Positions 12,691-56,103 of a DNA stretch of 64,000 bases are shown piece after piece. Source of the stretch: Patescibacteria group bacterium (GTDB lineage Bacteria; Patescibacteriota; Patescibacteriia; UBA2591; UBA6264); NCBI GenBank assembly GCA_021735685.1, contig JAIPGN010000001.1, positions 15,994 through 79,993 on the forward strand. Direction: 5' to 3'. The position numbers and the translations under genes were made by a program. Below the pieces are notes generated by a model. The model was not told where the DNA came from. It saw only the letters and a list, made by a program, of their open reading frames with translations, and did not search any database. The stretch's first letter is position 1. Each line of letters begins with the position of its first letter.

Positions 12691-12791
12691 AAAACCGTCA
12701 AAAAACTAACGTTTTTAAAAAATCGACTTTAAAAACCTTTCTCTGAGCCGGTTTTAAGTAAAGCATTTTTGGGGTCTGGCCCCAACTAAAG
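12691..12791 (+). repeat. about 100-nt dispersed repeat element, copy A
   Basis: aaaaccgtcaaaaaactaacgttttt…ctttctctgagccggttttaag…gcatttttggggtctggccccaactaaag. Shares about 80-90% identity with copies at 36437, 51056 (inverted) and 56003. Confidence 0.8.
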
Positions 12792-14657
12792 TTAACCTTC
12801 TTGTGATTCTGAATCTAAATTTAGATCTAAGTTTGGGTCTAGACTTGACTCTGGGTCTTTCTCTGGTTCTCGTCCCACCAACCAAACTTCTGGCCAAGGC
12901 TGATAACGACTAACCCAAACGTCCCTGCGGGTTATTTTATTGGGAAAAGTTATGGTGTTAATGTACTTAGCTTCTGCGCCCGCATGAGCTGATTCTATTC
13001 TCCTTTTCTTTCCTGGTTCTAATTCATCGGTTTCAATAAATTGAGGCGGGCCAGGTTGAACTATATTATAAATTTCCGGGCCCTCTCCTTGAACTTTTCG
13101 ACCATCATCAGTACCGTAAAATTCAAAGATCAAATCATCGCCTTCTATCTTTGTCTGCAACAAAAGATGACGCCCGGTATCATTAACAAAACGAAAGTCT
13201 GGTCGAGGATTATAAATAGTAGCATCTAAACCAGCTGGCTCGTAATAAGACACTCGATAAGAATGAGAAGCTCTTTCCGTAACAGGCAAACCTGTGTTCA
13301 GGACTAAACGAAACATCGTGGTCCCAATTTGACACAAACCTCCTCCGTATTCAGGCACCGTGCGATCTCCCTTAATAACCAATTCTGGTAAAAATCCAGA
13401 ATCTTTATTTATTTCTCCCAAAGCCTGAACTAAAGAAAACTCTTGATCGGGAGAAATAAGCAAACCGTGCAAAATCTCCGCGCCCACCCTAATATTATGA
13501 CGACGATTCTGCGGGCTGCCCGCAAAATTAGAAGAACCAACAGCCAATAAATCATTAATGCCCAAAACATTTAAATTATTAGGCAAGGGAGTAGGGTCAA
13601 CCTTTTCAACTTGTAAAAGAATATTATTTTTTTCTCCTTTTAGAATGGTTTGGGTAATTAATTCTTGAGTAGCTTCTATATTCAATTGCAATCCCTTTTT
13701 CCCGGCCTGAAACTCACTTACTCTTCTTTGGTCATCACTCTCTATAATCTCTAAACGGGTTTCTCTGGGAGCTACGTTTATTTCCTTTCCTATTTCCTCC
13801 AGATATTCTCTCACTTTCTCTTGGTCAAGAAAAAGTTCTCCTGGCCTTCCTTTTTCTTTTTGACTAAAAATTAACCAATTTCCAATCTTCTCCGGAGAGC
13901 AAATCCATTCTTGATCTTGGTATTCTAATAGATAAGGAGAGGAATTAAAAATCTCTTGAGCGCGAGCAAAAGCCACCTGCACTTCTTCGGCTCTAATTGC
14001 CGGTCGATCAACAATCGCCTCAATGACAATTTCTTGATTATTCAATCGTTCCAAGTTTAAAATAAGATCGTCTAAAGCCTTTTCGTAATCAAAGACAAAA
14101 CCACTGGTCTCCTCTTGTAATTCAATTTGCCCCTCTTTGACAATGATATCCGCATTCTGAGATGGTTTTTCTAAAAATGAAAGCTTGCTTCGAATAATTT
14201 CTTTCAATTCCTGACGATTGATATCAACTGGAAATTTCAAAACTTTAGGTTTAAACAAGATTTTAATTTTATTAGCCACCATCTTGATTAAATTTCGATC
14301 TCTTCCGACCAATAAAGCATCGGTCAAAGCTTGATGAATATCAAAATTAACAATTTGACGACTTAAATCTGGATCGCTAACAGCAATTAAAGACAAAGGA
14401 ACACTAACCCTTTCTTCTCCCTGTTCTGTTTTCACTAAAAAGGACAGTTCCTCTTTCTCTATTTTTTTGACTGCCAAGTTTAAAAAAATCCGAGCTTCAT
14501 CTTTTTTTAAACCACCCACGTTTAAATTATCAAAATAAACCTGAGGATAAATTCTTTCTTGATAGATTCCTTGAAAAAATAAAAGGTAAGCAACTAGCAA
14601 AACGCTGACAAAAAGAAAATAATAAAAAAAACTAAAAGATTTATTCTTAAAAATCAT
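12792..14657 (-). CDS. VanW-family protein with N-terminal membrane anchor
   Basis: 621 aa. C-terminal VanW-like block (…EYGGGLCQIGTTMFRLV…) and an N-terminal TM segment. Confidence 0.65.
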   Translation of the reverse strand: MIFKNKSFSFFYYFLFVSVLLVAYLLFFQGIYQERIYPQVYFDNLNVGGLKKDEARIFLNLAVKKIEKEELSFLVKTEQGEERVSVPLSLIAVSDPDLSRQIVNFDIHQALTDALLVGRDRNLIKMVANKIKILFKPKVLKFPVDINRQELKEIIRSKLSFLEKPSQNADIIVKEGQIELQEETSGFVFDYEKALDDLILNLERLNNQEIVIEAIVDRPAIRAEEVQVAFARAQEIFNSSPYLLEYQDQEWICSPEKIGNWLIFSQKEKGRPGELFLDQEKVREYLEEIGKEINVAPRETRLEIIESDDQRRVSEFQAGKKGLQLNIEATQELITQTILKGEKNNILLQVEKVDPTPLPNNLNVLGINDLLAVGSSNFAGSPQNRRHNIRVGAEILHGLLISPDQEFSLVQALGEINKDSGFLPELVIKGDRTVPEYGGGLCQIGTTMFRLVLNTGLPVTERASHSYRVSYYEPAGLDATIYNPRPDFRFVNDTGRHLLLQTKIEGDDLIFEFYGTDDGRKVQGEGPEIYNIVQPGPPQFIETDELEPGKKRRIESAHAGAEAKYINTITFPNKITRRDVWVSRYQPWPEVWLVGREPEKDPESSLDPNLDLNLDSESQEG

Positions 14658-15145
14658 TCTGAAACTTTTACACTTTTTTGAAGTCCTCTGTCTTCGGCCT
14701 TAGGCAAAATAATCTTTAAAATTCCATTTTTAAAATTAGCCCTAACCTCATTAGCTTTAATCGGACAAGGAAGAATTAAGGTACGTGAAAAATTCCCCCA
14801 AAAGCATTCTTGAAAATAATAATTAACCGCCTCCTGTTCCGGACGAGAACGATTACCTCTAATAACAATTAAATCTGGCTCTGTAATAATGTCTATATCC
14901 TTGGCTTCCACACCAGCAACCATAGATTCAATTATTAAATCTTCTCCTTGTTCATAAATATCAACCGACAATTGCCCTTGAGCTTCCTCTGGTAGCCAGT
15001 CCGCTTTTTCAGATTTCTTTTTCTTAATAAATTTTTTCTCAGCTTTTTTCTTTTTTTCTTCCTTTCCGGTCAAAACATTAACTTCCTCTCCTTCTTGATT
15101 TAAAAAGTCTTGTTCTAGTCCTAAAATTTTACTCCAAAAAGACAT
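14654..15145 (-). CDS. Hsp20/alpha-crystallin family small heat-shock protein
   Basis: 163 aa. Alpha-crystallin domain pattern (…VDIYEQGEDLIIESMVAGV…IRGNR…GILKIILPK). Confidence 0.7.
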   Translation of the reverse strand: MSFWSKILGLEQDFLNQEGEEVNVLTGKEEKKKKAEKKFIKKKKSEKADWLPEEAQGQLSVDIYEQGEDLIIESMVAGVEAKDIDIITEPDLIVIRGNRSRPEQEAVNYYFQECFWGNFSRTLILPCPIKANEVRANFKNGILKIILPKAEDRGLQKSVKVSE

Positions 15146-15158
15146 AATAATTTATTAT

Positions 15159-17381
15159 TTATTGATCATAAGCTCGCATAGTGGTTACATTCACTCCACC
15201 CAAAAAATTACGAGAATAAGCGTAAAATCGAGAAACTGGATCACCACTAGAATCAAAAATATTTATTTCTGGTTCCTTAAATTTATTGGGGGCAATAATA
15301 ATTTCGCTTCTCTTGTCTTGATCAAAATCAGCAGTTGCTAAATTTGCCCCCTGATAATAGTCTTTAGAATAAGACAAAAACTGCAATCTTAAAAGAAGAA
15401 GGCGAGAATCAAAAACCCTTACATAAGAAGAAGCTCTGGAGTCAACGCTACATATAATTTCACCAATTCCATCACCATCAACATCACCAACTGCTACTTG
15501 TACTCCGCCTAAAAAATTGCGATTAAAGGCAAAGAAATGAGAAAGAACGCCTCCTTGACTGTTAAAAATTCTTACATGCGGGCCTCCGCCAGCTCCTGCT
15601 CCAGTAATAATTTCTTTCCTTCCATTACCATTAATATCGCCTATCCCTAGATTAACCCTTCCTTGAAAATTTTTATTATAAGCCGGAAATTCTGCTTTTA
15701 CTTCTCCTTGCCAATTAAAAATTTTAATCAGAGAGTCTTGGTTAGGCCCAGGAGCGGTAATAATTTCATCTTGTCCATCGCCATCAACATCACCAACTGC
15801 TACTTGTACTCCGCCACGAAAATTCTCATCATAAGCGAAAAAACCACCCTGAGGTTCTCCGTTTAAATCAAAAATTCTTACATGCGGTCCTCCGCCAGCT
15901 CCTGCTCCCGTGACAATATAGTCTTTTCCTTCTCCCTTAATATCCCCAGCAGACACCTGAACTCCGCCACGAAAATTCTCGTCATAAGCAAAAAAACCAC
16001 CCAAAGAAAGACCGGCAGAATCAAAAATCCTTACATGAGGACCTCCGCCAGCTCCTGCTCCCGTGACAATATAATAAGACTGATCTAGTGTTCCCAATTG
16101 ACTATAAGCGTAATCAACGCTTCGATAAGCATTAATCCTCCCTTGTCCCAACTCTCCTTCCAAGCCTGGATTTAAATTATCAATGCCGTCAGCTTGACTA
16201 AAGATAAAGTCTTGAACCTGTTTTTGACTAAAAAGGGGATTAATGGACCAAATTAAAGCAGCTAATCCAGAAACCATAGGAGCAGCCAAGGAAGTTCCTG
16301 ACCAATAACCTCCATAATATTCTCGATAATCCTTGTCGCTGGAATTATAGGCAAGAGTTCCGTAAATTTTTGTCCCCGGAGCAGCAATATCAACACATTT
16401 TCGTCCGAAATCAGAAAAAAGAGCCTTGCGATCAGTATCATCAACAGCAGTTACGCCCACAATAAAATTATCGTCATCTTCTTGATCTAAACAAATAGGA
16501 TAATTAGGGGTTTTATTTAAATTTAAAGGTTGATTAACTGTTTCATTGCCGGCTGCAGCTACCACAATCACCCCTTGCCGCCAAGCTTCTTTAAGAGCCT
16601 CTGCCAGAAAAAAACTTTCATTGGTGCCCACAAAACTCAAATTAATAATTTTAGCTCCATTTTGCACTGCATAACGAACCGCTCTAATGACATTTTCCAC
16701 ACTGCCTGTACCTTGACTGTTCAAAACGCGTAAAGGCATAATTTTGCTTTTCCAAGCCACTCCAGCTATTCCTTGCTGATTATCACCTACAGCAGAAGCA
16801 ATTCCGGCCACTAAAGTTCCATGATGAATTCCTCCCTCGCCATAAGGTTCATCAAATCGGGGGCGAGGATTAGAGTTATAACGAATAAAGTCCCAGCCGT
16901 AAACGTCATCAATAAAACCATTATCATCATTATCTATTCCATCTCCAGGAATCTCTCCGGAATTATGCCAAATATTTTCTTGAAGATCGGGATGATCAAC
17001 ATCAACTCCCGTATCTAAAATAGCAATAACAATATCTTCACTACCACCTTTAGTAAAGTCCCAAGCTTGAGGGGCCTTAATCTGACTTAAATACCATTGA
17101 TTCCTGTAAAGTAAATCATCAGGGACAAAAGAGGCCTCAAAAGAATAATTTGGCTCAGCATATTCCACAAAAGGAAGAAAGGAAGCAATCTTACTTAAAG
17201 ATGAGCTTAAAAAAGCAGGACTAGATAAACGATAAATTTGTTCTCGCTCTTTTAGTCTAATCAAAACACCACTTTGCGCAGAGTCGGATCGCAAAAGAGG
17301 GAAAAACGAAAAAGAAAAAAGCAAAACTAGGCCAAAAAGAAAGCTCAGTAAAAATATTTTTTTTCTAAAAAACAAATTCAT
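15159..17381 (-). CDS. secreted S8 (subtilisin-family) peptidase with C-terminal FG-GAP-like repeat propeller
   Basis: 740 aa. Signal peptide, then catalytic triad motifs DTGVDVDHPDL, HGTLVAGIAS and GTSLAAPMVSGLAAL. Followed by about six repeats of GAGAGGGPHVRIFD…GGFFAY…NFRGGV. Confidence 0.8.
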   Translation of the reverse strand: MNLFFRKKIFLLSFLFGLVLLFSFSFFPLLRSDSAQSGVLIRLKEREQIYRLSSPAFLSSSLSKIASFLPFVEYAEPNYSFEASFVPDDLLYRNQWYLSQIKAPQAWDFTKGGSEDIVIAILDTGVDVDHPDLQENIWHNSGEIPGDGIDNDDNGFIDDVYGWDFIRYNSNPRPRFDEPYGEGGIHHGTLVAGIASAVGDNQQGIAGVAWKSKIMPLRVLNSQGTGSVENVIRAVRYAVQNGAKIINLSFVGTNESFFLAEALKEAWRQGVIVVAAAGNETVNQPLNLNKTPNYPICLDQEDDDNFIVGVTAVDDTDRKALFSDFGRKCVDIAAPGTKIYGTLAYNSSDKDYREYYGGYWSGTSLAAPMVSGLAALIWSINPLFSQKQVQDFIFSQADGIDNLNPGLEGELGQGRINAYRSVDYAYSQLGTLDQSYYIVTGAGAGGGPHVRIFDSAGLSLGGFFAYDENFRGGVQVSAGDIKGEGKDYIVTGAGAGGGPHVRIFDLNGEPQGGFFAYDENFRGGVQVAVGDVDGDGQDEIITAPGPNQDSLIKIFNWQGEVKAEFPAYNKNFQGRVNLGIGDINGNGRKEIITGAGAGGGPHVRIFNSQGGVLSHFFAFNRNFLGGVQVAVGDVDGDGIGEIICSVDSRASSYVRVFDSRLLLLRLQFLSYSKDYYQGANLATADFDQDKRSEIIIAPNKFKEPEINIFDSSGDPVSRFYAYSRNFLGGVNVTTMRAYDQ
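15560..16090. repeat. intragenic tandem DNA repeats encoding the FG-GAP-like repeats of the S8 peptidase
   Basis: Near-identical segments of about 150 nt, e.g. ggacctccgccagctcctgctcc…, recur at least three times (about 15578, 15884 and 16040). Confidence 0.6.
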
Positions 17382-17395
17382 CTTATTTCCTCTTC

Positions 17396-22147: not shown

Positions 22148-22153
22148 AAAAAA

Positions 22154-22225: not shown

Positions 22226-22278
22226 CTTTATCATTTTGGGGACAGTCCCCTCAAACTCCCTTTCTAGAATCCGCTCCC

Positions 22279-23289
22279 TCAAAAGCTTTCTGGTCCATTT
22301 TTTCGATTTGGTGAAAAAATGGCTTTTTTTATCTCTATTCTTTTTAGGCCTTGTTTCTTGTTTCCGTACTCTACAAAAACTTTCTTGTCTGCAGGAGCAT
22401 CAGAGTAACGAGCCGTTAAAGATGCGGCTCGTCTAATATAATCCTTCTTCTTAGGGCCAACCAAAATAGTAGTTGGACTTGGCCAATCAGGACAATTAAA
22501 AAAATAATCAACCGAAGATTTTAATTTCATTAAATTTTTATTCTCTTCTTGGTTTCGCCCCACCATTATAATTCCATCCAGCGTTTCAAAAAAACGACCA
22601 AACTTAATTAAAGAAATTTCTCGAGGAGTTATCGTTGGCCATTTTTGCCAAAGAATTTTTAATTTTTGAGCAAACTCTTTTTCGGTTAAAAGACAACCTC
22701 CGGCCGGAGAAGAATAAACTTGCAAACCATGCTCTTGAGCTAAAGACAATTGTTTTTTACGAGAACGCCCTTCAATACCTAAAAGCTTTTCACGATCAAC
22801 CCAACCTTTTTTTTCTGGACGAGTCAACGGTAAAAGTAGGGCAGATAAGGGTCGTAAAATCAAATCACGCAAACCAGTTTCTTGAGCAATTAAAATTAAA
22901 TCTGATCGCTTTTGCGACATTGGCCTTTGCCCCAAAACCTCTCCGGTAAAAACAAAATCCGCCCTTAGCTTATTCATTAATTCCTTAGCTTTTCTCAGCA
23001 TAAAAATATGACAATCTAAACAAGGATTAAGGGCTGAGCCATAACCAAAACGAGGTTTTTGAATCATCTTTAAATGCTCTGTCCCTAAGTTTACAAATTT
23101 TATTTTAAGTCCTAATTCTTTAGCACCTAAACTTGCAATTGATTCAGTTTTGTCTGAAAAAAAAGGAGATAAAAAAGTAAGAAGGGTGACGGAAACGCCT
23201 TGATCGGCAATCAATTTAGCAGCCACTACTGAATCCAAGCCTCCAGAAAAAAGTCCAATTGCCTTTTTTTTCTTTTGAAACAAAAACAT
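22279..23289 (-). CDS. PP-loop ATPase, ThiI-like tRNA sulfurtransferase (no THUMP domain)
   Basis: 336 aa. PP-loop SGGLDS at the N-terminus. A …FTGEVLGQRPMSQ… block resembles ThiI GESLGQVASQ, and there are conserved Cys residues. The exact specificity is uncertain. Confidence 0.45.
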   Translation of the reverse strand: MFLFQKKKKAIGLFSGGLDSVVAAKLIADQGVSVTLLTFLSPFFSDKTESIASLGAKELGLKIKFVNLGTEHLKMIQKPRFGYGSALNPCLDCHIFMLRKAKELMNKLRADFVFTGEVLGQRPMSQKRSDLILIAQETGLRDLILRPLSALLLPLTRPEKKGWVDREKLLGIEGRSRKKQLSLAQEHGLQVYSSPAGGCLLTEKEFAQKLKILWQKWPTITPREISLIKFGRFFETLDGIIMVGRNQEENKNLMKLKSSVDYFFNCPDWPSPTTILVGPKKKDYIRRAASLTARYSDAPADKKVFVEYGNKKQGLKRIEIKKAIFSPNRKNGPESF

Positions 23290-25110: not shown

Positions 25111-26182
25111 TTATTTTTGTAAAACTTCTTGATAAAGTTTTAGAGTTTCTTGAGCGCATTTTTGCCAAGAAAAATTTTTTATTCGCTGACTTCCTTTCTT
25201 GATCATCTCTTCTCTTAATTTTTTGTTCTGATCTAATTCTAAAATAGCTTTAATCATTTCTTCAGAATTACAAGGATTGAAATACAAAGCCGCATTCCCA
25301 TATATTTCTGGTAAACAAGAAGCATCCGAAGAAACTACAGGTAAATTATTTTGCATTGCCTCTAACCCTGGTAAACCAAAACCTTCGCAAAGAGAAGGAA
25401 AAACATACATTAATGCATTTTGATACAATTCTTTCAAATCTCGGTCAGAAACTCTTCCTGAAAAAATAATTTTATTTTCTAAGCCCAATTCTTGAGCTGT
25501 TTTCTGAAGGGAACGATAAAAACTGTCTATCTTGCCAACTAAAACTAATCGCCACTTTGGCTTTAATTTTGAAATTTTTGAAAAAGATTTAATTAAAAAT
25601 TGAATATTCTTGTGAGGAAAAGCATTCCCCACATAGAGTAAATATTCTTCCTTAGTTGGCTTCATAAATAACCATAATTTTATTTGGATCAATATTATAC
25701 CTCTTAATTATTTCTTTTTGGCTAAAACAAGAGACAGTAATGATTTTTCTAGATCTTTGAATTGCATTTTTAATTACTAAAAAATAAACTCTTTTCTTTA
25801 AAAAAAAGAAAAAAGAGGGTAAATTAGAGCTTTGAGAGGAACTTTGTTCATGGATCAAATCATGAATAGTAACCACAAATGGTTTAAGGTAAAAAAGAGG
25901 AACATTAAAATGCAAAAAATGAACTAAATCTAATTTAAATTTGTAAAGCTGCCAAGGAAAAAAGATTTGTTCAGCCAAAGAATACCATTGGTAATCAGCT
26001 AAAACTTTATGAAAATTTTCATTTTGAGGATGATAATTATCAAAATTTTCCTTACGTAAAAAAATAAAATATTGATTCTTCTGATCAATTTTTTCTAAAT
26101 TTTTAATTAATTTTTGAGTATAACGTCCAATTCCCTTGCCATATTCTGGTCCATAAAATCGAGCATCAATTCCAATACGCAT
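25111..26182 (-). pseudogene. GT4-family glycosyltransferase split by a frameshift (two overlapping ORFs)
   Basis: ORF 25652..26182 is the N-terminal GT-B half (MRIGIDARFYGPEYGKGIGRY…). ORF 25111..25692 is the C-terminal half (…EGFGLPGLEAMQNNLPVVSSD…). The +1 frame change is near 25650-25690, in an A-rich stretch. Confidence 0.6.
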
Positions 26183-29355: not shown

Positions 29356-30399
29356 ATGTCTATTAATGATTTTTTCTCAGAAGCTGACAATTTAAAAGCT
29401 TCTGATATTCATCTTTCGGTCGATGCTCCCGTATTTTTCAGAGTTAATGGTTCTTTAAAAAAATCTCAAAAATGGCCAGTTCTTGATCAAGAAAAAATAA
29501 TTAATTTAATTTCTGAGATTATTTCTACAAAACAGAAAGAAAATCTTTTAAAAAACAAGTATTTAGAATTTTCTTATCAGAATAAAGAAAAAAATCGTTT
29601 TCGGGTTAGCGTTTTTTATGAAAAAAATAATTTAGCTCTAGCTGCGCGTTTAATTCTTTCAAAAATACCAACTCCTCAAGAAATTGGTCTCCCTAAAGGG
29701 GGAATAAAATTAGCAGAAGCAAAAACTGGTTTAGTTTTAGTTACGGGACCAACTGGTTGTGGTAAATCTACTACCTTAGCCACCATGATTGACTACATTA
29801 ATCAAGAAAGAGAATCTCATATTATTACCTTAGAAGATCCTATAGAATTTATTTTTAAAAACAAAAAAAGTTTAATTGCTCAAAGAGAGTTAGGAAAAGA
29901 TATACCTTCTTTTAATCTAGCCTTAAAGCATATTGTCCGCCAAGATCCTGATGTTATCTTAGTTAGTGAAATGAGAGACTTAGAGACAATTAGTTTAGCT
30001 ATTACCTTAGCTGAAACCGGACACTTGGTTTTATCAACTGTTCATACTCCAAGCGCTCCTCAGACCATAGATCGAATTATTGACGTCTTCCCTTATAATC
30101 AGCAAGAGCAAATTAGACTGCAAGTAGCCTTAGCTTTAAAAGGGGTAATATCTCAATACCTTCTTCCAAAAATAGGAGGAGGTAGAGTAGCAGCCCGAGA
30201 AATACTAATCAATACACCCGCGGTTTCTAATTTAATTAGAGAAAATAAAATAGCTCAAATAAAATCTGTTATACAAAATAGTAGTCGACAAGGAATGCAA
30301 GCTTTAGAAAAGGAACTAAAACATCTCTATCAAAGTAAAATAATAAAAATAGAGGATGCTTTAGCTTATGCTAACTATCCTCAAGAAATAATAAATTAA
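29356..30399 (+). CDS. pilT: type IV pilus retraction ATPase PilT-like (PilT/PilU family)
   Basis: 347 aa. Walker A GPTGCGKST and the PilT-family length and motif set. No pilB, pilC or pilM lie nearby. Confidence 0.75.
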   Translation: MSINDFFSEADNLKASDIHLSVDAPVFFRVNGSLKKSQKWPVLDQEKIINLISEIISTKQKENLLKNKYLEFSYQNKEKNRFRVSVFYEKNNLALAARLILSKIPTPQEIGLPKGGIKLAEAKTGLVLVTGPTGCGKSTTLATMIDYINQERESHIITLEDPIEFIFKNKKSLIAQRELGKDIPSFNLALKHIVRQDPDVILVSEMRDLETISLAITLAETGHLVLSTVHTPSAPQTIDRIIDVFPYNQQEQIRLQVALALKGVISQYLLPKIGGGRVAAREILINTPAVSNLIRENKIAQIKSVIQNSSRQGMQALEKELKHLYQSKIIKIEDALAYANYPQEIIN

Positions 30400-36257: not shown

Positions 36258-36436
36258 AATTTAACTTGGTTAAATTTTGTCGATTAAGACAAAAATTATT
36301 TAATTAATTAGATATAATAGCTTTTATTTTAACAAGAAGGACTGGATTGTCAATAAAAAAGAAATTGAAATTGATGATAGTTAACCCAAACTTTATTTTT
36401 TAATCTTTTTGCTGATTTTTTTAAAAGAACAAATTT

Positions 36437-36536
36437 AAAAACCGTTAAAAAATTGACGTTTTTAAAAAAATGAAGTTAAAATTCTTTCTCTGAGCTGCTT
36501 TTAGACAAGGCGTTTTTGGGGTCTGGCCCCAAATAT
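36437..36536 (+). repeat. about 100-nt dispersed repeat element, copy B
   Basis: aaaaccgttaaaaaattgacgttttt…ctttctctgagctgcttttagacaaggcgtttttggggtctggccccaaa, lying in the rpsA/ORF36549 divergent spacer. Confidence 0.8.
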
Positions 36537-36548
36537 AATTGACATTTA

Positions 36549-37739
36549 TTGAAGTTTATTTATAATGTTTTTATGGTTTTAGGAGCGAATAAAAAACAAC
36601 CTTTGGTTCTTTTTTTGGCAGCTTTGATGCTGGTTTTTTTTATTCTAATTACTTATTTTTATTGGGTTCCTGATAGTCTAATTTCTTTGGTTCCTGGCAA
36701 TGCTTTGTCTTACACTCATTTAAACTTAAGTAAATTTCATTATTCTGGATATTTAAGCCAAAAATGGATTAGAAATCATCAGTCTTTGGTAAAAGATTTT
36801 TTTCAAGAACGATCAATGCCTTCTGATTTTTTAGATTTTATTGAAGAAATAGCTTTTTTTACTTTACCTCCAGAAAAAGACAATAATCTTCCTTCGATGA
36901 ATTTACTTTTTCAAAGCAAGGATTTAAAAAAAGAAGATTTTCAAGAATTTTTTAAAGAGGATTGGGTTGAGGAAATGGCTCCCCATATCTTTTTAGTTTC
37001 TAAAGAAAAAAAAGATTTTACTAAAAAGGAGGGATTTTTGTCACAAGATAGCAGTTTTCGTTTTATTAACCCTTTTCAACAGGAAGTGGTTTTGGCGCCG
37101 GGATATTTTGATTTAAATTTAGTTTCCCTTTATTTACCGGTTAGAGAGAGAGGACTTGCTAAAAATTCTGAATTAAAGGAATTCGAGATTATTTATTCTT
37201 TAAAAGAAAAAGATTTGTTTTTTCAAATAGAAAGTAGCTCTGATTTTATTGTTTTGGTTAATAATTTTAATTCTGAGGATCTTTGGAATTTAAAAAATGA
37301 ATTTAAATTTGTTTTCAGCTTTCCTGATCAGACCTCTTTGGAGAATTTAAGGCAAAAAATTAGTACTTATCTTGCCTGGGGAAGCCCTCGAGAGAGACAG
37401 ATTGTTTTACCAGACAATACTTCTTTTACAGAAATTGTAATTAACCCAGAAAAATTTGCCTTTGAGGAGAAAGATTCAATTTATTATTGGCAGAGCCCTT
37501 CTTTGGAAGGAGATCAAGAATTTTCTCAATTTCCTTTAGTAGAATTTGCTTTTTTCCAAGAAAAGGGGTATGTTTATTTTTCTAATGATTTTTCTTTTCT
37601 AAAAGAAATTAAGAATCGTCAACAACAAGGTGAAGAAAAGCAGGAGTTTTTACTGATAGAATTAAATAATCCTTGGTTTCAGAGTTTAGTTCTCTCTTTT
37701 CAGGATAATAAGATTGTTGGGCATTTGGAAGAAAATTAA
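36549..37739 (+). CDS. hypothetical membrane-anchored protein
   Basis: 396 aa. N-terminal TM, acidic/aromatic-rich, no recognisable domain. Confidence 0.35.
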   Translation: MKFIYNVFMVLGANKKQPLVLFLAALMLVFFILITYFYWVPDSLISLVPGNALSYTHLNLSKFHYSGYLSQKWIRNHQSLVKDFFQERSMPSDFLDFIEEIAFFTLPPEKDNNLPSMNLLFQSKDLKKEDFQEFFKEDWVEEMAPHIFLVSKEKKDFTKKEGFLSQDSSFRFINPFQQEVVLAPGYFDLNLVSLYLPVRERGLAKNSELKEFEIIYSLKEKDLFFQIESSSDFIVLVNNFNSEDLWNLKNEFKFVFSFPDQTSLENLRQKISTYLAWGSPRERQIVLPDNTSFTEIVINPEKFAFEEKDSIYYWQSPSLEGDQEFSQFPLVEFAFFQEKGYVYFSNDFSFLKEIKNRQQQGEEKQEFLLIELNNPWFQSLVLSFQDNKIVGHLEEN

Positions 37740-47439: not shown

Positions 47440-48048
47440 ATGTTATTAAAGAAAAAAAATATTTTTATTTTTCTGTTAATTGTTCTTTTTGTTTTTTTTC
47501 TAAATTTTAATTTAGCTGAAGCAGCTAATAATTGTAATGAATTTTGTAAAAGCAATTGTGGATTAGAGAACAATCCTAACCTTTGCCGAATAGTAGGGGC
47601 GGCAGAAGAAAATATGATTTGTAGTTGTTGTCCGGCAGTAATTGGTCAGGGCAATAAGTATGAGTGTTATTGCCAAAATAGCAATAAAGTAATTTGTGAG
47701 GTTGGAGGATTGTTTGGAGGAGAGAAAATGGCAATATGTTCTTGTTGCGGAGATTGTGATTTAAGTGATTTTTTGTATCTCGGAGTGAATGTTGCTGAAA
47801 ATATTTTAAAGTATATGGGGGCTTTAGCTCTTTTACTTTTTGTTTTAGGAGGGATTATGTGGATAACTTCGGGTGGCTCAAAGACCAGAATTCAAAAGGG
47901 AATGGCTATTATTAAAGGATCTTTGATTGGTTTAGCGATTATTATATTTGCTTTTTTGATGATAAGGGTTATAATGGAGAAAGTTTTAAAAGTGGAAGAT
48001 CAGTATCTTCCTCAATCTACTAGCGCGCAAGAACAAAAAATTTCTTAA
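47440..48048 (+). CDS. paralog 1 of small two-helix membrane protein family, with an N-terminal Cys-rich (14 Cys) ectodomain
   Basis: 202 aa. Sec signal peptide, a Cys-rich about 90-aa domain, then the helix1-WITSGG-helix2 module shared with the four downstream paralogs. Confidence 0.6.
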   Translation: MLLKKKNIFIFLLIVLFVFFLNFNLAEAANNCNEFCKSNCGLENNPNLCRIVGAAEENMICSCCPAVIGQGNKYECYCQNSNKVICEVGGLFGGEKMAICSCCGDCDLSDFLYLGVNVAENILKYMGALALLLFVLGGIMWITSGGSKTRIQKGMAIIKGSLIGLAIIIFAFLMIRVIMEKVLKVEDQYLPQSTSAQEQKIS

Positions 48049-48051
48049 TTT

Positions 48052-48402
48052 ATGAAGAAAAAAAATATTTTATTATTTTTAGTATTGAGTTGCCTTCTAG
48101 TTTTTGGTTGGAATGGTATAACCCAAGCGCAATCAGTAGTAAGTTTGCCTGATCCCTTAAAAGGACAAGGAGATGATCCTTCGGTTTTAGTTGGAAATAT
48201 TTTGAATTATGTTTTAGGGATGTTAGGCGTTTTGGCTTTAGTAATGTTTGTTTATGGTGGATTGATGTGGATGACTTCAGGTGGAGCCAGTGAAAAAATT
48301 AAAAAAGGAAAGGATACTATTGTTTGGTCAATCTTGGGATTGGCTTTAATTTTTTTCAGCTATGCCCTTTTGGATTTTATTTTAGCCGCTTTACAGCAAT
48401 AA
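48052..48402 (+). CDS. paralog 2 of small two-helix membrane protein family (VirB2/TrbC/TraA-like pilin topology)
   Basis: 116 aa. Signal peptide …TQAQS, then …VLGMLGVLALVMFVYGGLMWMTSGGASEKIKKGKDTIVWSILGLALIFFSYALLDF…. Confidence 0.6.
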   Translation: MKKKNILLFLVLSCLLVFGWNGITQAQSVVSLPDPLKGQGDDPSVLVGNILNYVLGMLGVLALVMFVYGGLMWMTSGGASEKIKKGKDTIVWSILGLALIFFSYALLDFILAALQQ

Positions 48403-48481
48403 GTATTGACTTGACAATTCATTAAGTAGTTTTATATTATTAAGTTAATAGGTCGAATTATTAATTATTTTAAGAAGAAAT

Positions 48482-48880
48482 ATGTTGAAAAAAATGAGAT
48501 CAAAGGCAAATCTTTGGTTTTTGGTAGTAATGATGATGGTTAGTTTGTTTTTCTCTTTACCTGTTTTAGCTCAGGAAGAAGAAAACCTTAATCTTCGAGA
48601 CGGTCTTGATGATTTTCTAACTGGTTCAGAGATGGGAGGCAAGCCAATTGGATTTGTGATTGGACGAATAGTGCAGGGAGTTTTAGGTATTCTTGGCTTG
48701 GTCTGTTTAGTTATCTTTGTTATTGCTGGTTTCCAGTGGATGACCTCTGCTGGCAGCAAAGAAAAAATTCAAAGTGCGCAAAAATCAATGAGCGCAGCAG
48801 TAATTGGTTTAATTATTGTGATTATTTCTTGGGCGGCGATTGATTTTATTGTTGGCGCTTTAGAATCTGTAACTGGATAA
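48482..48880 (+). CDS. paralog 3 of small two-helix membrane protein family
   Basis: 132 aa. Signal peptide …VLAQEE, then …VLGILGLVCLVIFVIAGFQWMTSAGSKEKIQSAQKSMSAAVIGLIIVIISWAAIDF…. Confidence 0.6.
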   Translation: MLKKMRSKANLWFLVVMMMVSLFFSLPVLAQEEENLNLRDGLDDFLTGSEMGGKPIGFVIGRIVQGVLGILGLVCLVIFVIAGFQWMTSAGSKEKIQSAQKSMSAAVIGLIIVIISWAAIDFIVGALESVTG

Positions 48881-48915
48881 AATTTTTCTTCTTAAAGTTA
48901 AAAAAGAGGTTTACA

Positions 48916-49290
48916 ATGAAAAAAAAGTTATTATCTTTTTTTAGCTTGTTTTTGTTATTTTCCTTGGTAATTGCTCCGGCTGTTTTTGCTCAGGATTTAG
49001 GACAAGCTCTTATGGATGATTTTCAAGACGAGGCTGGCATTGGCGATAAAAGCCTTGCTGAGGTCACAGGTAGTGTTGTTAAGGCAATTTTGAGTGTTTT
49101 AGGATTAGTTGCTTTAATTATTTTTATTATCGCTGGCTTCCAGTGGATGACCTCAGGTGGCAATAAAGAAAAGATTCAAGGCGCGCAAAAATTGATGGGA
49201 GCAGCAGTAATTGGTTTAATTATTGTGATTATTGCCTGGGCTGCCACTTACTTTGTGGTTCAATCCTTGACTGGTGTCACTGGAGCTTAA
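48916..49290 (+). CDS. paralog 4 of small two-helix membrane protein family
   Basis: 124 aa. Signal peptide …VFAQD, then …ILSVLGLVALIIFIIAGFQWMTSGGNKEKIQGAQKLMGAAVIGLIIVIIAWAATYF…. GAGG lies 9 nt upstream, the only SD-like start among the paralogs. Confidence 0.6.
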   Translation: MKKKLLSFFSLFLLFSLVIAPAVFAQDLGQALMDDFQDEAGIGDKSLAEVTGSVVKAILSVLGLVALIIFIIAGFQWMTSGGNKEKIQGAQKLMGAAVIGLIIVIIAWAATYFVVQSLTGVTGA

Positions 49291-49325
49291 CAAAAGATTA
49301 TTATCTTTGTAATTTAAGCTAATTT

Positions 49326-49718
49326 ATGTTTTTTTGTCGTTTCCGAGAAAAGGTCTCAAGACTTTGGGGAGCAATGATGTTTTTTTTCTTTTGTTTAATG
49401 ACTCCAGCGCAAGCTATTAACATTCGAGAAGGATTAACATCAGCTGCTTCTAGCGCTGGCCTAAATACCAATCAATCTTTGGCCCTAACCGTTGGCTTAG
49501 TATTTCAGAAAGTGTTAGGTGTTTTAGGACTAATTTTATTAGTTTTATTTGTGGCGGGTGGTTTAATGTGGATGACTTCGGGAGGAAGTACTGATAAAAT
49601 AAAAAAAGCTCGAGGCCTGCTTATTAATGCTGTAATTGGCATGGTTCTTGTGATTTTAGCTTACGCCTTAACTGATTTAGTGATTGGGGGTATAGAGAAA
49701 GCGATAATTACGAATTAG
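49326..49718 (+). CDS. paralog 5 of small two-helix membrane protein family
   Basis: 130 aa. The true start is probably the internal MMFFFFCLMTPAQA. …VLGVLGLILLVLFVAGGLMWMTSGGSTDKIKKARGLLINAVIGMVLVILAYALTDL…. Confidence 0.55.
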   Translation: MFFCRFREKVSRLWGAMMFFFFCLMTPAQAINIREGLTSAASSAGLNTNQSLALTVGLVFQKVLGVLGLILLVLFVAGGLMWMTSGGSTDKIKKARGLLINAVIGMVLVILAYALTDLVIGGIEKAIITN

Positions 49719-50560: not shown

Positions 50561-51112
50561 ATGACTATTTTAGGAATTGATCCGGGATTTGCTTTGACTG
50601 GTTATGCCTTATTAAAAAAAGATGACAGAAGTAAAAATCTCTCTTTAATTGATTATGGTTGTGTTTCTACTTCCGCTCAAGAGGTTTTTCCTCAAAGATT
50701 GGTTATTCTTTATTCAGAAATTAAAAAAATTATTAAAGAGTATTGTCCTGATCAATTAGCGATTGAAGATATTTATTTTGCTAAGAATGTGAAGACAGCG
50801 GTTAAGGTTAGTCAAGCGCGTGGAATTGTTATCTTGGCGGCAGCTCAAGTTCCAGAAATGAAAATTTCTAATTTTACTCCCCTTCAGGTGAAACAAGCTT
50901 TAACCGGTTATGGCCGTGCCTCTAAAAAACAGATTCAACAAATGGTAAAGAGTGTTTTAAAGTTAAAAGAAATTCCCCGTCCTGATGATGCTGCTGATGC
51001 TATTGCTATTGCCTTGACTTGTGCCCAAACAAATCCCTTGATTGGTGGGGCCTTGGTGGGGCCAGACCCCAAAAATGCCTTGCCTAAAACCAGCTCAGAG
51101 AAAGAGTTTTAG
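50561..51112 (+). CDS. ruvC: crossover junction endodeoxyribonuclease RuvC, with C-terminal about 20 aa contributed by a repeat element
   Basis: N-terminus MTILGIDPGFALTGYAL. The …DDAADAIAIALTCA block. The tail …IGGALVGPDPKNALPKTSSEKEF is encoded by inverted repeat copy C. Confidence 0.8.
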   Translation: MTILGIDPGFALTGYALLKKDDRSKNLSLIDYGCVSTSAQEVFPQRLVILYSEIKKIIKEYCPDQLAIEDIYFAKNVKTAVKVSQARGIVILAAAQVPEMKISNFTPLQVKQALTGYGRASKKQIQQMVKSVLKLKEIPRPDDAADAIAIALTCAQTNPLIGGALVGPDPKNALPKTSSEKEF

Positions 51113-51150
51113 GGTCAATTTTTCAAAAGCGTTAATTTTTTAACGTTTTT
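51056..51150 (-). repeat. about 100-nt dispersed repeat element, copy C (inverted), overlapping the ruvC 3' end
   Basis: Reverse complement reads aaaaacgttaaaaaattaacgctttt…ctctttctctgagctggttttaggcaaggcatttttggggtctggcccc. Confidence 0.8.
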
Positions 51151-51243
51151 ATTTTTTTTATTAGATTAATTAATCAATGATTTTGAGAATAAAAAAAGAG
51201 GCTAAGAAGCCCTTTTCTTTTTAAATTTTTTGGGTAATTAATT

Positions 51244-52541: not shown

Positions 52542-55016
52542 ATGAGTTATCAACATCAAGATTTATTTGAAAAATGGTTTAAAATTTGGGAAGATTTAAA
52601 GATTTATCAGGTTTCAGATTTACTTCCAAAAGAAAAAAAAGAATACATCTTAGTGGAATTTCCTTATCCTTCAGGCTCGGGATTACATATTGGGCACGCT
52701 TTTAGTTTTGTGGGAGCAGATGTTTACGCTCGTTTTCAGAGAATGAAAGGGAAGAACGTCCTTTTTCCAATGGGTTGGGATGCCTTTGGTTTACCTACTG
52801 AAAATTATGCTATTAAGACTAAATCTAAACCTCAGGAAATTACGGCTCAAAACACCGCTACTTTTAAAAGGCAGATGAAAAAATTGCAACTTTCTTTTGA
52901 CTGGTCGCGAGAAATTAATACTACTGATCCCCAATATTATCAATGGACCCAATGGATTTTTATCCAATTGTTTAAAAAAGGATTAGCTTTTAAAAAAGAG
53001 ATGCCAATTAATTGGTGTCCCCAGTGCAAGATTGGATTAGCTAACGAAGAGGTAGTTGATGGTAAATGTGAAAGGTGTGGAGCTGAGGTGACCAGGCGTA
53101 ATATCTCTCAATGGATAGTTAAAATAACTGATTATGCTGATCGTTTATTACAGGGTTTAGAAAAGACAAATTTTATTGAAAAAGTAAAAAGGTCTCAAAT
53201 TAATTGGATCGGAGCAAGTGAGGGAGCGCAAATTATTTTTCCAATTGAATTGTCTTCCTCTCAGAAAGAAAAAATAGAGATCTTTACTACTCGTCCGGAC
53301 ACATTATGGGGAGCGACTTTTATGGTTTTAGCTCCTGAACATCCTCTTTTGGATAAAATTTTAAAAGTTTGTTCGGAGAAGAAAAATAAAGAGATTAAGG
53401 AATATATTAAGAAGTCAAAAAAGAAAAGTGATTTAGAAAGGGTGGATCTTGATAAAGAAAAAACAGGTGTTTTCACTGGTCTTTATGCTTTGAATCCGGT
53501 CAATAAAAAAGAAATTCCGGTTTGGATTTCTGATTTTGTTTTAAGTTCTTATGGCACTGGTGCAATTATGGCAGTGCCAGCTCATGATCAAAGAGATTGG
53601 GAATTTGCCCAAAAATTTGGATTAGAGATAATTCCAGTAATTAAGCCTGACCAAGAGTGGAATTTCCAAGAAAAAGCTTACGTTGATGTGGAAAAAGGTA
53701 CTCTTATTAATTCGGGGCCTATCAATAATTTGAGTCCTGATCAGGCTTTTTCTAAAATGATTAATTGGTTGCAAGAAAAAGGTATTGGTCGGTCAGCAAA
53801 AAATTATCATTTACGAGATTGGATTTTTTCTCGTCAACATTATTGGGGAGAACCTATTCCTATGATTTTTTGTCCTCAGTGTGGTTGGCAACCAGCAAAA
53901 GAAGAAGATCTGCCGATAGAGTTGCCTAAAGTAGAGCGTTATCATCCTACTGATACTGGAGAAAGCCCCTTATCTCAAATTAAAGAATGGGTGGAGACAA
54001 CTTGCCCTTTGTGTGGTGGGCCAGCTAAAAGAGAAACAGATACTATGCCTAATTGGGCGGGGTCAGATTGGTATTTTTTAAGGTATATTGATCCTCAAAA
54101 TCAAGAAAAATTAGTTGATCTTGAAAAAGCCAGAAAATGGTTGCCGGTAGATATTTATATTGGAGGCGACGAGCATAACACCTTACATCTTCTCTATTCT
54201 CGTTTTATTTATCAATTCTTATGGGATTTGGGAGTTGTGCCCTCGGAACATCCGGAACCTTATCAAAAAAGAATTTCTCATGGTGTGATTTTGGGCCCAG
54301 ATTCTCAAAGAATGAGCAAGTCTAAAGGAAATGTGGTGGACCCTGAAGAAGTTATGGGAAGGTTTGATAAATATGGTTCAGATATTTTAAGAATTTATTT
54401 AATGTTCATTGGTCCTTTTGAAGGGACTATGGCTTGGAATGATCAATCTTTAACTGGCATTAAAAGATTTTTAGATAAGATTGAAAAGGCTATTCAGTCC
54501 TCTTTGGATTTTAGTTCAACTAAAGATAATTGCTCAATTAATCCTAGAATGGAAACTATTTTGCACCAAACCATTCAAAAGGTTTCTCAAGATATTAAAG
54601 AAACGAAATTCAATACGGCCGTTGCTGGCTTAATGGAGTTTTTGAATGAAATTAGAGCACAAAGTCAAGAAAAAAAGATTTCAGTTAAGATTTTAGAGAA
54701 TTTTCTGTTACTATTATCCCCTTTTGCTCCAATTTTTTGTGAGGAACAATGGCAAAAGATAAAAAGTAAAAGTAAAAGCATTTTTTTAGAAAACTGGCCC
54801 GAGTTTGATTCTCGTTTAACTCAAGACAAAAAAATAGAATTTGTAGTTCAAGTCAATGGGAAGGTTCGCGAAAAAATTGATCTTTCTACGGGACTAAAAC
54901 AAAAAGAAGTAGAAGAAATTATTTTCGCTTTACCTCAGATTAAAAAATATCTTTTGGGTAAAAAACCTAAAAAAATTATTTTTTTACCAGACAAGTTGAT
55001 TAATATTGTAATTTAG
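52542..55016 (+). CDS. leuS: leucyl-tRNA synthetase
   Basis: 824 aa. HIGH motif (HIGHAF), KMSKS (RMSKSKGN) and editing/zinc-binding insertions. Confidence 0.9.
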   Translation: MSYQHQDLFEKWFKIWEDLKIYQVSDLLPKEKKEYILVEFPYPSGSGLHIGHAFSFVGADVYARFQRMKGKNVLFPMGWDAFGLPTENYAIKTKSKPQEITAQNTATFKRQMKKLQLSFDWSREINTTDPQYYQWTQWIFIQLFKKGLAFKKEMPINWCPQCKIGLANEEVVDGKCERCGAEVTRRNISQWIVKITDYADRLLQGLEKTNFIEKVKRSQINWIGASEGAQIIFPIELSSSQKEKIEIFTTRPDTLWGATFMVLAPEHPLLDKILKVCSEKKNKEIKEYIKKSKKKSDLERVDLDKEKTGVFTGLYALNPVNKKEIPVWISDFVLSSYGTGAIMAVPAHDQRDWEFAQKFGLEIIPVIKPDQEWNFQEKAYVDVEKGTLINSGPINNLSPDQAFSKMINWLQEKGIGRSAKNYHLRDWIFSRQHYWGEPIPMIFCPQCGWQPAKEEDLPIELPKVERYHPTDTGESPLSQIKEWVETTCPLCGGPAKRETDTMPNWAGSDWYFLRYIDPQNQEKLVDLEKARKWLPVDIYIGGDEHNTLHLLYSRFIYQFLWDLGVVPSEHPEPYQKRISHGVILGPDSQRMSKSKGNVVDPEEVMGRFDKYGSDILRIYLMFIGPFEGTMAWNDQSLTGIKRFLDKIEKAIQSSLDFSSTKDNCSINPRMETILHQTIQKVSQDIKETKFNTAVAGLMEFLNEIRAQSQEKKISVKILENFLLLLSPFAPIFCEEQWQKIKSKSKSIFLENWPEFDSRLTQDKKIEFVVQVNGKVREKIDLSTGLKQKEVEEIIFALPQIKKYLLGKKPKKIIFLPDKLINIVI

Positions 55017-55038
55017 TCGGGAATTAATTTTTTGATTT

Positions 55039-55893
55039 TTGGTTTTATTTTTTAGTTATTCTTTTGTGAAAATAAAGGAAATTAAGAAAATTTGTCGAGA
55101 ATATAATTTTACTCCCTTGCGTCGGCGAGGGCAAAATTTTTTAATCAATCCTTCAGTTGTGCGAAGAGTTATCAAAGAAGCCAAATTAACTAAAGAAGAT
55201 TTAATTCTGGAAGTGGGCCCAGGATTAGGGGCTTTGACCGAAGAGCTTGTTCAGCAAGCAGGAAAAGTGATAGCTATAGAGATTGATTCCTGTTTAGTGA
55301 AAATTTTAAAAGATAAAATAAAAGAAAAAGGTAATTTAGAAATAATCAAAGCTAGTATTTTTGATGATTTGCCTAAGCAAATTAAACTAGCTGATAATTA
55401 TAAAGTTATCGCCAACCTACCTTTTAATATTACGGGCAAAGCATTAAGGATTTTTTTAGAAGAGAGGGAAAAGATAAAATTGATGATTTTGATTGTTCAA
55501 AGAGAAGTGGCAGAAAGAATAGTTGCCCAACCTCCTCAAATGTCTCTTCTAAGTTTAGCTGTGCAGTTTTATGCCCACCCCGAAATTATTTTTGACATTC
55601 ATCAAAGTAATTTCTGGCCTCAACCTCAAGTGCAGTCAACAGTTATTAAAATAATTCCTAATCAACAAAAAATTAGCCCTGAGCAAGAGGCTATTTTTTT
55701 TCAAATTATTAAAAAAGGATTTTCTTCTAAGAGAAAGTATTTGCTTAACAATCTAAGCAAAAGTGTTATAATTAAAAAGAAGAAAGATGAACTTCTGGAC
55801 ATTTTTAAAGAAATCGATTTAAGTCCTCAAGTGCGAGCCCAAGAGTTGAGTATAGGAAAGTGGTTAGAGTTGACGAGAGCCTTAGAGCGTTGA
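55039..55893 (+). CDS. rsmA: 16S rRNA (adenine1518/1519-N6)-dimethyltransferase
   Basis: …RRRGQNFLINPSVVRRV…EVGPGLGALTEEL…NLPFNIT… is diagnostic KsgA/RsmA. The true start is probably internal. Confidence 0.8.
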   Translation: MVLFFSYSFVKIKEIKKICREYNFTPLRRRGQNFLINPSVVRRVIKEAKLTKEDLILEVGPGLGALTEELVQQAGKVIAIEIDSCLVKILKDKIKEKGNLEIIKASIFDDLPKQIKLADNYKVIANLPFNITGKALRIFLEEREKIKLMILIVQREVAERIVAQPPQMSLLSLAVQFYAHPEIIFDIHQSNFWPQPQVQSTVIKIIPNQQKISPEQEAIFFQIIKKGFSSKRKYLLNNLSKSVIIKKKKDELLDIFKEIDLSPQVRAQELSIGKWLELTRALER

Positions 55894-56002
55894 GGAGTTA
55901 ATTATTTGAGTGTTTAGAATTATTGTTGAATTCCGTGAGCGCGCGGTCATTTAAATAGGGTAAATAATAGTTTTTAACTGATTTGAAAAGGGGAGAAATC
56001 GT

Positions 56003-56103
56003 AAAACCGTTAAAAAACTTACGTTTTTCGAAAATTGACCTTAAAACCATTTCTCGGAGCGGGTTTTAGAGAGGCAGTTTTTGGGGTCTGGCCCCAACTA
56101 AAG
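56003..56103 (+). repeat. about 100-nt dispersed repeat element, copy D
   Basis: aaaaccgttaaaaaacttacgtttttcg…ctcggagcgggttttagagaggcagtttttggggtctggccccaactaaag. Provides a spurious upstream start for ORF 56035. Confidence 0.8.

Follow-up and report, generated by a model that had tools for sequence, protein, structure and literature searches.

Several kinds of short, non-autonomous repeats that carry palindromes have been described in bacteria, among them the miniature inverted-repeat transposable elements (MITEs), the REP/REPIN sequences with their RAYT partners, the relatives of the IS200/IS605 insertion sequences and the Rickettsia palindromic elements (RPEs), which insert in frame inside genes. 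Patescibacteria have very small genomes, in which repeats and mobile DNA are usually said to be scarce. REPINs are inherited vertically and decay once the RAYT is lost, as reported for Neisseria gonorrhoeae in comparison with Neisseria meningitidis (bioRxiv 10.1101/2021.07.10.451892). Here we analyse a repeat element of about 100 nt found in a 64,000-nt stretch of DNA from a Patescibacteria group bacterium (contig JAIPGN010000001.1, positions 15,994 to 79,993; hereafter the window), together with its counterparts in related genomes. The explanation that we favour, and to which we give an even chance, is that the element forms an old, slow-moving, hairpin-ended, non-autonomous family of dispersed DNA, REP/REPIN-like in its behaviour and dependent on a trans-acting factor. 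No earlier report of such repeats in Patescibacteria was found in a literature search.

A family of hairpin-ended repeats

The initial annotation had proposed four dispersed copies of a repeat built from a 5′ hairpin, a central block and a 3′ hairpin. Pairwise alignment revealed four intact copies of 95-113 nt with a mutual identity of 80-85%, and a search with nhmmer, using a hidden Markov model built from the four copies, returned each of them with E ~1e-33. The four regions are homologous on these values, their positions were confirmed by both methods, and the three motifs are all present in the proposed architecture. The extents given by the core model were 12691-12785 (+) for copy A, 36438-36532 (+) for copy B, 51057-51150 (−) for copy C and 56003-56097 (+) for copy D. 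Extending the count within the window yielded a fifth, degenerate copy, designated E (E = 2.6e-7 with nhmmer, and 63 bits in a later profile search), as well as a weak candidate for a remnant consisting of the hairpin only (E = 0.12, later E = 0.008); in relatives, orthologous copies were found. The copies are listed below, those of A to D with the outer limits of their similarity.

12687..12799, + strand: copy A, in the interval that separates a VanW-family gene (stop 12792, −) from infB (start 12617, −)
36434..36546, + strand: copy B, in the divergent region between an S1-domain gene (start 36257, −) and a 388-aa gene (real start 36573)
51046..51151, − strand: copy C (the copy itself delimited at 51053..51151), between the convergent genes ruvC (+) and LysM/CHAP (−)
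55999..56111, + strand: copy D, sense, between ksgA (RrnaAD, end 55893) and a 236-aa gene (start 56113)
22236..22326, − strand: copy E, degenerate, with the hairpin GGGGACTGTCCCC, whose end is separated by 9 nt from the 3′ end of tRNA-Arg(cct)
2907..2941, − strand: possible solo remnant of the 3′ part (AAGGTCTGACCCCAATTAAA), immediately downstream of tRNA-Val; a weak candidate

A second copy of the 5′ half of this tRNA-Val, 40 nt long and 98% identical, is found 79 nt upstream of the complete gene (window 2952-3106), and the hairpin resembling the 3′ end of the element sits right downstream of the same tRNA gene.

Analysis of the sequence of the element revealed a palindrome at its 5′ end, clearest in a relative (AAAACCGTTAA-AAAA-TTAACGGTTTT), followed by a conserved GAAAAATTGAC block, a centre of the form CTTTCTCTGAGC...GTTTTAG and a 3′ hairpin, GGGGTCTGGCCCC, which is preceded by five T (TTTTT) and followed by AA. 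The two terminal palindromes are different sequences, not related to each other. The 19-mer TTTTTGGGGTCTGGCCCCA is identical across all four intact copies. Four exact occurrences of the 16-mer TTGGGGTCTGGCCCCA were counted in the window against 0.16 expected, and hairpins of the GGGGNCWGNCCCC type occurred five times, confined to copies A-E, against 0.01 expected. A pattern describing the 5′ palindrome matched copies A-D and, elsewhere, one site only, with one mismatch (60689-60704). The absence of a U-tract after the hairpin, which the initial annotation had taken as a general property, holds for the 3′ hairpin, which has no T-tract after its stem; it does not hold for the 5′ hairpin, flanked by an A-run and a T-run (AAAA-CCGTTAA-loop-TTAACGG-TTTT) and in this similar to a weak bidirectional terminator. 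The copies are 5-24 kb apart, occur in both orientations and form no regularly spaced direct repeats, in agreement with their exclusion from CRISPR.

Regarding the genes around them, copy A is antisense to both the VanW-family gene and infB, with the end of its 3′ hairpin 6 nt from the VanW stop codon, and ruvC reads antisense into the 3′ hairpin end of copy C. Copy B does lie in a divergent promoter region, as had been noted, between the S1-domain gene (356 aa) and the 388-aa gene, and its 3′ hairpin ends 5-8 nt ahead of a promoter-like TTGACA-N16-TATAAT sequence at 36539-36566. With loci retrieved from related populations included (designated here by L numbers), copies A, C, E and that of L010 are antisense to a gene ending 0-12 nt from the 3′ hairpin, copies D and those of L011, L012 and L014 are sense and placed between co-oriented genes, and copy B stands between divergent genes. 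The orientation of the element with respect to genes follows no rule.

Insertion, persistence and decay at orthologous sites

Syntenic loci from related populations were recovered via RuvC, VanW and an identical S18 protein. They include loci from a sister species (L016, L022 and L036, among them the 658-kb contig Ga0376525_000002), from other relatives bearing the family (the L007/L015 type and the L020/L042/L043/L038 type) and from outgroups (L032-L034 and L039/L040; RuvC 66-68% and VanW 58% identical). The outgroups have the same gene order as the window at the sites examined. Site A, that is, the place of copy A, is empty in L039/L040, where the gap between VanW and infB is 12 nt; site D is empty in L032-L034, with a gap of 41-51 nt between ksgA and the next gene; and at site C the ruvC/LysM interval of the outgroups holds ordinary A-stem-T terminators and no element. 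Since these syntenic sites are empty or occupied by terminators only, the element sequence was inserted. In the sister species, sites A, B, C and D are all occupied. A copy is found at the orthologous position of copy C in L007/L015, L016 and L020, and likewise at that of copy D in L016. Throughout ~55 kb of synteny shared by the window and the sister species, the same four sites are occupied and there is no additional copy, so no movement has taken place within this segment since the two species split; copy E is decayed in both. Altogether, the comparison of syntenic loci shows, as judged from occupied and empty sites, that the ancestor of a genus-level Parcubacteria clade acquired the element by insertion at several intergenic positions beside gene ends, and that inheritance at those sites has been vertical ever since.

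The distribution of the family was studied through the 19-mer. A scan of one genome per species, covering 185,579 species, gave just 5 chance matches, located in high-GC genomes, and the family is on this result absent from the species representatives. The 19-mer was also absent from IMG/VR, and no match to the element was obtained in phage or plasmid collections. In metagenomes of the Joint Genome Institute, the 19-mer was found in six low-GC Ga0102925/6 contigs with full-length copies, corresponding to 5 distinct loci, and pieces identical to the window were present in the Logan assemblies of SRR12088349. Two other matches were rejected as chance occurrences, one inside coding DNA with 49% G+C (L041) and one from the metagenome scan, in a contig with 47% G+C and mostly within open reading frames (ORFs) (L008). 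In addition, an exact-protein look-up with a KH-domain protein returned the same strain only, and a profile of the six-frame translations of the element, searched against 5.8 billion proteins, returned only P0004 (E = 0.28). By these searches the family is restricted to a narrow, genus-level clade of Parcubacteria. An outgroup Parcubacteria contig gave a weak match (L032:9680-9775, E = 0.002) that shares the AAAAAACGGAC block, TTTCTGAG and a GGGGACAGTCCCC hairpin, the latter resembling the hairpin of copy E, so an older, diverged subfamily may exist more widely.

To this history of insertion is added a pattern of conservation that differs among lineages. Among the window, L020 and L007, identity at site C amounts to 82-86% for the element, in comparison with 59-67% for four-fold degenerate sites of yebC and ruvC and 50-65% for the remaining DNA of that intergenic region (Fisher p between 0.013 and 6e-8). 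The sister copy C is 74% identical to that of the window, no better than neutral. Differences were then counted against a consensus derived from third-party genomes only, with the invariant 19-mer left out. The window copies differed at 31/264 positions and the orthologous sister copies at 68/267 (p = 5e-5); all four orthologous copies in the sister species have decayed about twice as far as those of the window, and the two species are equally distant from the outgroups at four-fold sites. At site B, the flanks are nearly identical between window and sister and the element has lost both hairpins in the sister; mean column identity over the whole site B alignment is 87%. It was also observed that these flanks (36258-36433 and 36537-36600) are near-identical in the two species, far above the 69% seen at four-fold sites. 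Paralogues within a genome, 80-85% identical, resemble each other as much as orthologues do (73-84%). Copies do not cluster by genome, and those from Ga0102925/6 are more similar to the window copies than to one another, which rules out within-genome concerted evolution as the sole cause of the conservation. These alignments show a state near a master sequence in most lineages together with a joint decay of all copies in one sister species. The simplest reading is that a trans-acting factor would keep the copies near a master sequence and that the sister lineage would have lost that factor.

A rearrangement was detected at site A in relatives. In two independent assemblies (L042:3999-4148 and L043:2845-2964) the copy at this site is inverted relative to copy A of the window, and both carry the arrangement TTTGGGGCCAGACCCC-TC-(5′ palindrome - centre - TTTTTGGGGTCTGGCCCC). 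In L042 this is followed by -GGAG- and an inverted 5′ palindrome, the contig of L043 ends inside the second 3′ hairpin, and L038 (7014-7042) breaks off inside the first hairpin. In L042, an additional inverted 3′ hairpin flanks the inner copy on one side and an additional inverted 5′ palindrome on the other (H3′-[H1-centre-H3]-H1′), so that a hairpin-palindrome unit is directly repeated with a period of 97 nt. Adjoining hairpins are separated by just 2-4 nt, and the termini of the element are thereby placed at the hairpin feet. The identity of the inner copy is 82-84% with copy C of L020 (L020_C), a locus from the same metagenome as L042 and probably from the same organism, and 82-85% with that of L010, vs 74-78% with copy A of the window. 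A simple inversion was discarded, given that the similarity of the inner copy to window copy A does not exceed that to other paralogues. The comparison, made over ~95 nt with little resolution, favours overwriting or nested insertion over a plain flip; either nested insertion with deletion or palindrome-mediated inversion would give the arrangement. As aligned, this relative shows a copy in the opposite orientation within what appear to be the remains of an older copy at one site.

Neighbouring gene models and genomic setting

The element also reaches into the models of adjacent genes, for which the following features are relevant.

50561..51112, + strand: ruvC ORF; the Pfam RuvC domain ends at residue 153 of 183
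51042..51063, − strand: 11-nt tandem duplication at the junction of ruvC and copy C (GGCCCCACCAA x2 on the minus strand)
56035..56112, + strand: false 26-codon N-terminal extension with a TTG start, derived from copy D; the mechanical ORF spans 56035..56823

The ruvC ORF overlaps copy C, read as its reverse complement, by 67 nt, and the last 22 codons of the ORF, stop included, lie in this reverse complement and the junction duplication. The 11-nt duplication is part of 14 extra nt in the window strain that shift the reading frame of the RuvC tail; the tail of a 99%-identical RuvC (P0001) fits the absence of the duplication. RuvC length ranges from 164 to 183 aa among close relatives, with variable tails (...MIGAQ, ...LIGARPQKRLA, ...ARPQKPSL and ...NWGQTPKTPSLKSASRKGFRGNF, and ...GGALVGPDPKNALPKTSSEKEF in the window), and more distant homologues end directly after CAQTK/N. 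As suggested by the alignment of the junctions, the likely ancestral state is that of L016, in which the stop TAA abuts TTGGGG; the junction of the window and L007 fits a 14-nt loss between ATTGG repeats, and that of L020 a separate deletion. These deletions and the duplication indicate that the RuvC fusion is an accident at the junction, not an insertion into the gene. The observation that the last RuvC codons and stop are repeat-derived was right, with small junction deletions plus the duplication as the route.

Copy D was likewise correctly seen to supply the first 26 codons of ORF 56035, the conserved start (MEEKK) being located 26 codons downstream, at 56113. In the case of copy E, the last ~16 codons and the stop of a ThiI-like ORF (22279-23289, −) come from the element. 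The altered tails of RuvC and the ThiI-like protein and the false N-terminus at 56035 are by-products of the element. For annotation, this means that the element yields false N-termini and variable C-terminal tails, and such element-derived tails have already been taken up by gene callers and protein databases. The real start of the 388-aa gene that follows copy B is at 36573, directly 3′ of the TTGACA-N16-TATAAT sequence; a leaderless mRNA is suggested by the distance of 7 nt from the end of this perfect motif to the ATG.

The window comes from a small genome of the candidate phyla radiation, assembled from a metagenome, and its best protein matches carry the names Patescibacteria or Candidatus Parcubacteria. 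It has a G+C content of ~33% and contains five tRNAs, dnaN and a switch of GC skew near 24-36 kb. In the segment 31005-33320, dnaN is near the GC-skew minimum, with a 322-aa gene lacking a Pfam match upstream, and no DnaA-family protein was found among the ORFs scanned in the window. In the segment 4695-6606, the 16S rRNA gene is followed by tRNA-Ile and by protein genes (dCTP deaminase, methyltransferase); no 23S gene is present within ~5 kb downstream, so the rRNA operon is unlinked. A gene for a T2SSE-family ATPase (29356-30399) lies between efp and two tRNAs and is present in L031, a contig from the European Nucleotide Archive; in the sister species it is missing (L022: efp, a 470-nt gap, HU), which constitutes a species-level indel near the origin. 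A family-4 glycosyltransferase is split into overlapping ORFs at 25111-26182 (Glyco_transf_4, N-terminal, 176 aa; Glycos_transf_1, C-terminal, 193 aa), a split that recurs in the gene calls of the sister species and is therefore conserved rather than due to a sequencing error. Five tandem paralogues encoding small T4SS-pilin-like membrane proteins with a common ...MWMTSGG... segment occupy 47440-49718, an array kept in relatives. The segment 56840-64000 is coding, not non-coding: it holds a giant gene, whose orthologue is ~2,788 aa long with a weak CBM_4_9 match, and no long ORF is listed there only because this gene runs past the end of the window.

Explanations of the element and comparison with known systems

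According to the explanation favoured here, a non-autonomous element of ~100 nt, bounded by two different palindromes, would copy into intergenic sites beside gene ends. A trans-acting enzyme encoded in the genome would recognise the terminal hairpins for copying and maintenance; the candidates are an HUH/Y1-type transposase, by analogy with REP/REPIN-RAYT and IS200/IS605-derived elements, or a site-specific recombinase. Occasional re-insertion or conversion would refresh the copies, and loss of the enzyme would lead to decay of the whole family. The combination of long persistence at orthologous sites and family-wide decay that is characteristic of REPINs was observed in this family. We consider unlikely, although it deserves mention, a more specific two-part system in which the element is paired with a chromosomal enzyme specific for hairpins or palindromes, an HUH transposase or an Xer-type recombinase encoded beside one copy. 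Such an enzyme would keep a small, vertically inherited population near the master sequence and could act on copies in place, flipping or overwriting them as at site A of L042, and the host may also use the sites. If true, it would give Patescibacteria their first described example of a REPIN-like persistent replicator or of a palindrome-based recombination module.

Several observations weigh against the favoured explanation. No target duplication or motif was established, with only a loose TTAA/TTTAG beside the 3′ hairpin, and no transposase, integrase or other candidate partner was found among the genes of the window and the fetched loci. No copy was gained or lost between the two best-sampled species, so current mobility is unproven. 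The above-neutral conservation could equally reflect a function for the host. Furthermore, the recovery of metagenome copies by an exact 19-mer inflates the apparent invariance of the hairpin, L020, L042 and the four window copies being those that carry the 19-mer independently of that search. Structure raises two more objections: the element is not an inverted doublet as REPINs are, its halves being non-complementary and folding as separate local hairpins, and its two hairpins are unlike each other, whereas the left and right hairpins of IS608-type elements are alike.

Much of the same evidence would suit domesticated cis-acting DNA sites, palindromes bound or recombined by a lineage-specific protein (a regulator, a nucleoid or segregation protein, or an Xer-type tyrosine recombinase) and maintained by the host at gene boundaries near the origin. 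The above-neutral conservation at orthologous sites and the invariance of the 19-mer, loop and T-run included, are in line with this proposal, orientation is irrelevant, as double-stranded DNA sites predict, and the simultaneous decay of all copies in one species fits the loss of a trans-acting factor. In addition, the 5′ palindrome has an arm-spacer-arm organization of 10-11 / 4-6 / 10-11 bp, the layout of a tyrosine-recombinase core site, one copy abuts the stop codon of an Xer-type recombinase gene, and the window covers the GC-skew switch and dnaN. We nevertheless hold this explanation to be doubtful: no such protein was identified, the Xer adjacency concerns 1 site in ~12 and may be due to chance, the contexts are heterogeneous (a divergent promoter, a convergent pair, the inside of operons, the vicinity of tRNAs), and many recombination sites around a chromosome would be hazardous. 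The Xer-type gene (L010:630-1889) encodes a tyrosine recombinase scoring above the NCBIfam cut-off for XerA-like proteins and just below those for XerC and XerD; the end of the gene coincides exactly with the 3′ hairpin of the element copy, and tRNA-Arg(tct) and tRNA-His come next. Some single-recombinase Xer systems keep dif beside the gene, and the adjacency at L010 may or may not be a matter of chance.

A role in RNA, either as small RNA genes, one of the two main options of the initial annotation, or as cis-regulatory or stabilising modules acting through their hairpins (3′-end protection, translation of the downstream gene), appears improbable. Two or three hairpins do recur in single-sequence folds, a few changes are compensatory (in the 5′ hairpin from C-G to U-A and from U-A to C-G, and in copy E from U-G to A-U within the 3′ hairpin), the T-G pair that closes the 3′ hairpin can form on the plus strand only, and sense contexts place this hairpin 9-30 nt ahead of the next start codon. 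On the other side, an Rfam scan of the window returned only rRNA and tRNAs, with no known family on the copies at gathering score or at E up to 10, the best match, over copy D, reaching 17 bits against a gathering score of 100. Fold z-scores were modest, from −2.3 to +0.1 on either strand, and the consensus from RNAalifold kept the inner 5′ stem and the 3′ hairpin only, the middle hairpin not being recovered. Covariation under a three-hairpin model was no better than in 500 shuffles, in a test of low power based on 14 sequences only: the measures were matched by 209, 147, 347, 278 and 266 of the shuffles, and 7 pairs were changed on both sides vs 5.8 in shuffles, 147 of which reached 7. Counts of G-U and A-C were balanced in hairpins 1 and 2, with no strand bias. 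Inspection by eye for −35/−10 pairs near the conserved TTGAC and within the flanks revealed no promoter common to the copies in or just upstream of the element, and a promoter scan of 48-58 kb listed none inside copies C or D. Positive support for a structured small RNA family was not obtained from Rfam, covariation, G-U bias, RNAalifold or z-scores, nor from the mixed orientation of copies, sense to some neighbours and antisense to others, and for generic RNA functions a decay at every site of a single species would be unexpected. Still less probable is a main role of the copies in terminating transcription, with the 5′ hairpin, between its A-run and T-run, as a weak bidirectional intrinsic terminator spread by duplication. 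This hairpin resembles the A-stem-T terminators of the outgroups at the ruvC/LysM site, and no other terminator-like hairpin follows ruvC in the window. However, the terminator scan did not call it, owing to a stem with only 2-3 G-C pairs, and the invariant part of the element is the 3′ hairpin, whose T-run precedes the stem; these two features bear out the earlier judgement that the copies are not simple terminators. Moreover, there is nothing to terminate at copy B, in its divergent promoter region, and no space for a new promoter at copies D, L011, L012 and L014, which are placed between co-oriented genes; the LysM gene is provided with a terminator of its own, and decay in the sister species affects every copy. 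Chance or low-complexity resemblance in AT-rich intergenic DNA, which the A/T-rich 5′ third of the element might evoke, is already refuted by the profile E-values, the excess of the 16-mer and the related copies at orthologous sites, and retains practically no probability.

Regarding known families of mobile DNA, classical MITEs (Correia/NEMIS, RUP, Nezha) are, like the present element, ~100 nt long, dispersed, intergenic, close to gene ends and able to alter ORFs. They carry the terminal inverted repeats of a parent insertion sequence and generate target-site duplications, neither of which was found here: the 5′ end (AAAAACCGTT...) did not match the reverse complement of the 3′ end (TTGGGGCCAGACC...) in any copy, and target-site duplications could not be demonstrated around the window copies, the flanks showing at most a possible TA...TA in AT-rich DNA and the empty sites of the outgroups being too diverged for exact breakpoints. 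The other main option put forward initially, a MITE-like mobile element, stands insofar as the family is dispersed, inserted and rearranged after speciation, and does not stand in the sense of a classical MITE. With the RPEs, compared by description only, the element has in common a palindromic repeat of ~100-150 nt in a reduced genome that can enter coding sequence; it differs in that its ancestral state abuts stop codons and that junction deletions and duplications give rise to variable, non-conserved tails. Sites of the parS, dif and attC types, DNA-uptake sequences and CRISPR/tracrRNA (suggested by GTTTTAG) were dropped, as their known features did not fit in arrangement, copy number or sequence.

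Elements derived from IS200/IS605 are likewise small, with sub-terminal hairpins at both ends and without terminal inverted repeats; they generate no target duplication, and none could be demonstrated here. Those of the IS608 type have a defined 4-5-nt target at the left end, which was not seen for this element, and no TnpA was found in the window or the loci. The REP/REPIN-RAYT systems of Pseudomonas, Enterobacteria and Neisseria, which come closest in behaviour, are also short, palindrome-bearing, non-autonomous intergenic repeats. As in this family, their sites are stable and vertically inherited, duplication is very rare, the population is centred on a master sequence and decay can affect the whole family in a lineage; both lack terminal inverted repeats, and target duplications, absent from REPINs, could not be demonstrated here. 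The present family differs from REPINs in its low apparent copy number (4-5 per 64 kb, and 5 loci from a related metagenome population), in that no RAYT was found in the 64-kb window or the fetched loci, and in its host, a member of the Patescibacteria. Because it is not an inverted doublet, its hairpins are unrelated, and neither a fixed target nor a partner was seen, we term it a new family of this broad type and not a REPIN or IS200/IS605 derivative. A family inserted long ago, kept at its sites, conserved above the neutral rate in some lineages and lost as a block in one matches the argument made for REPIN-RAYT systems in proteobacteria, and would extend it to a very different group of bacteria.

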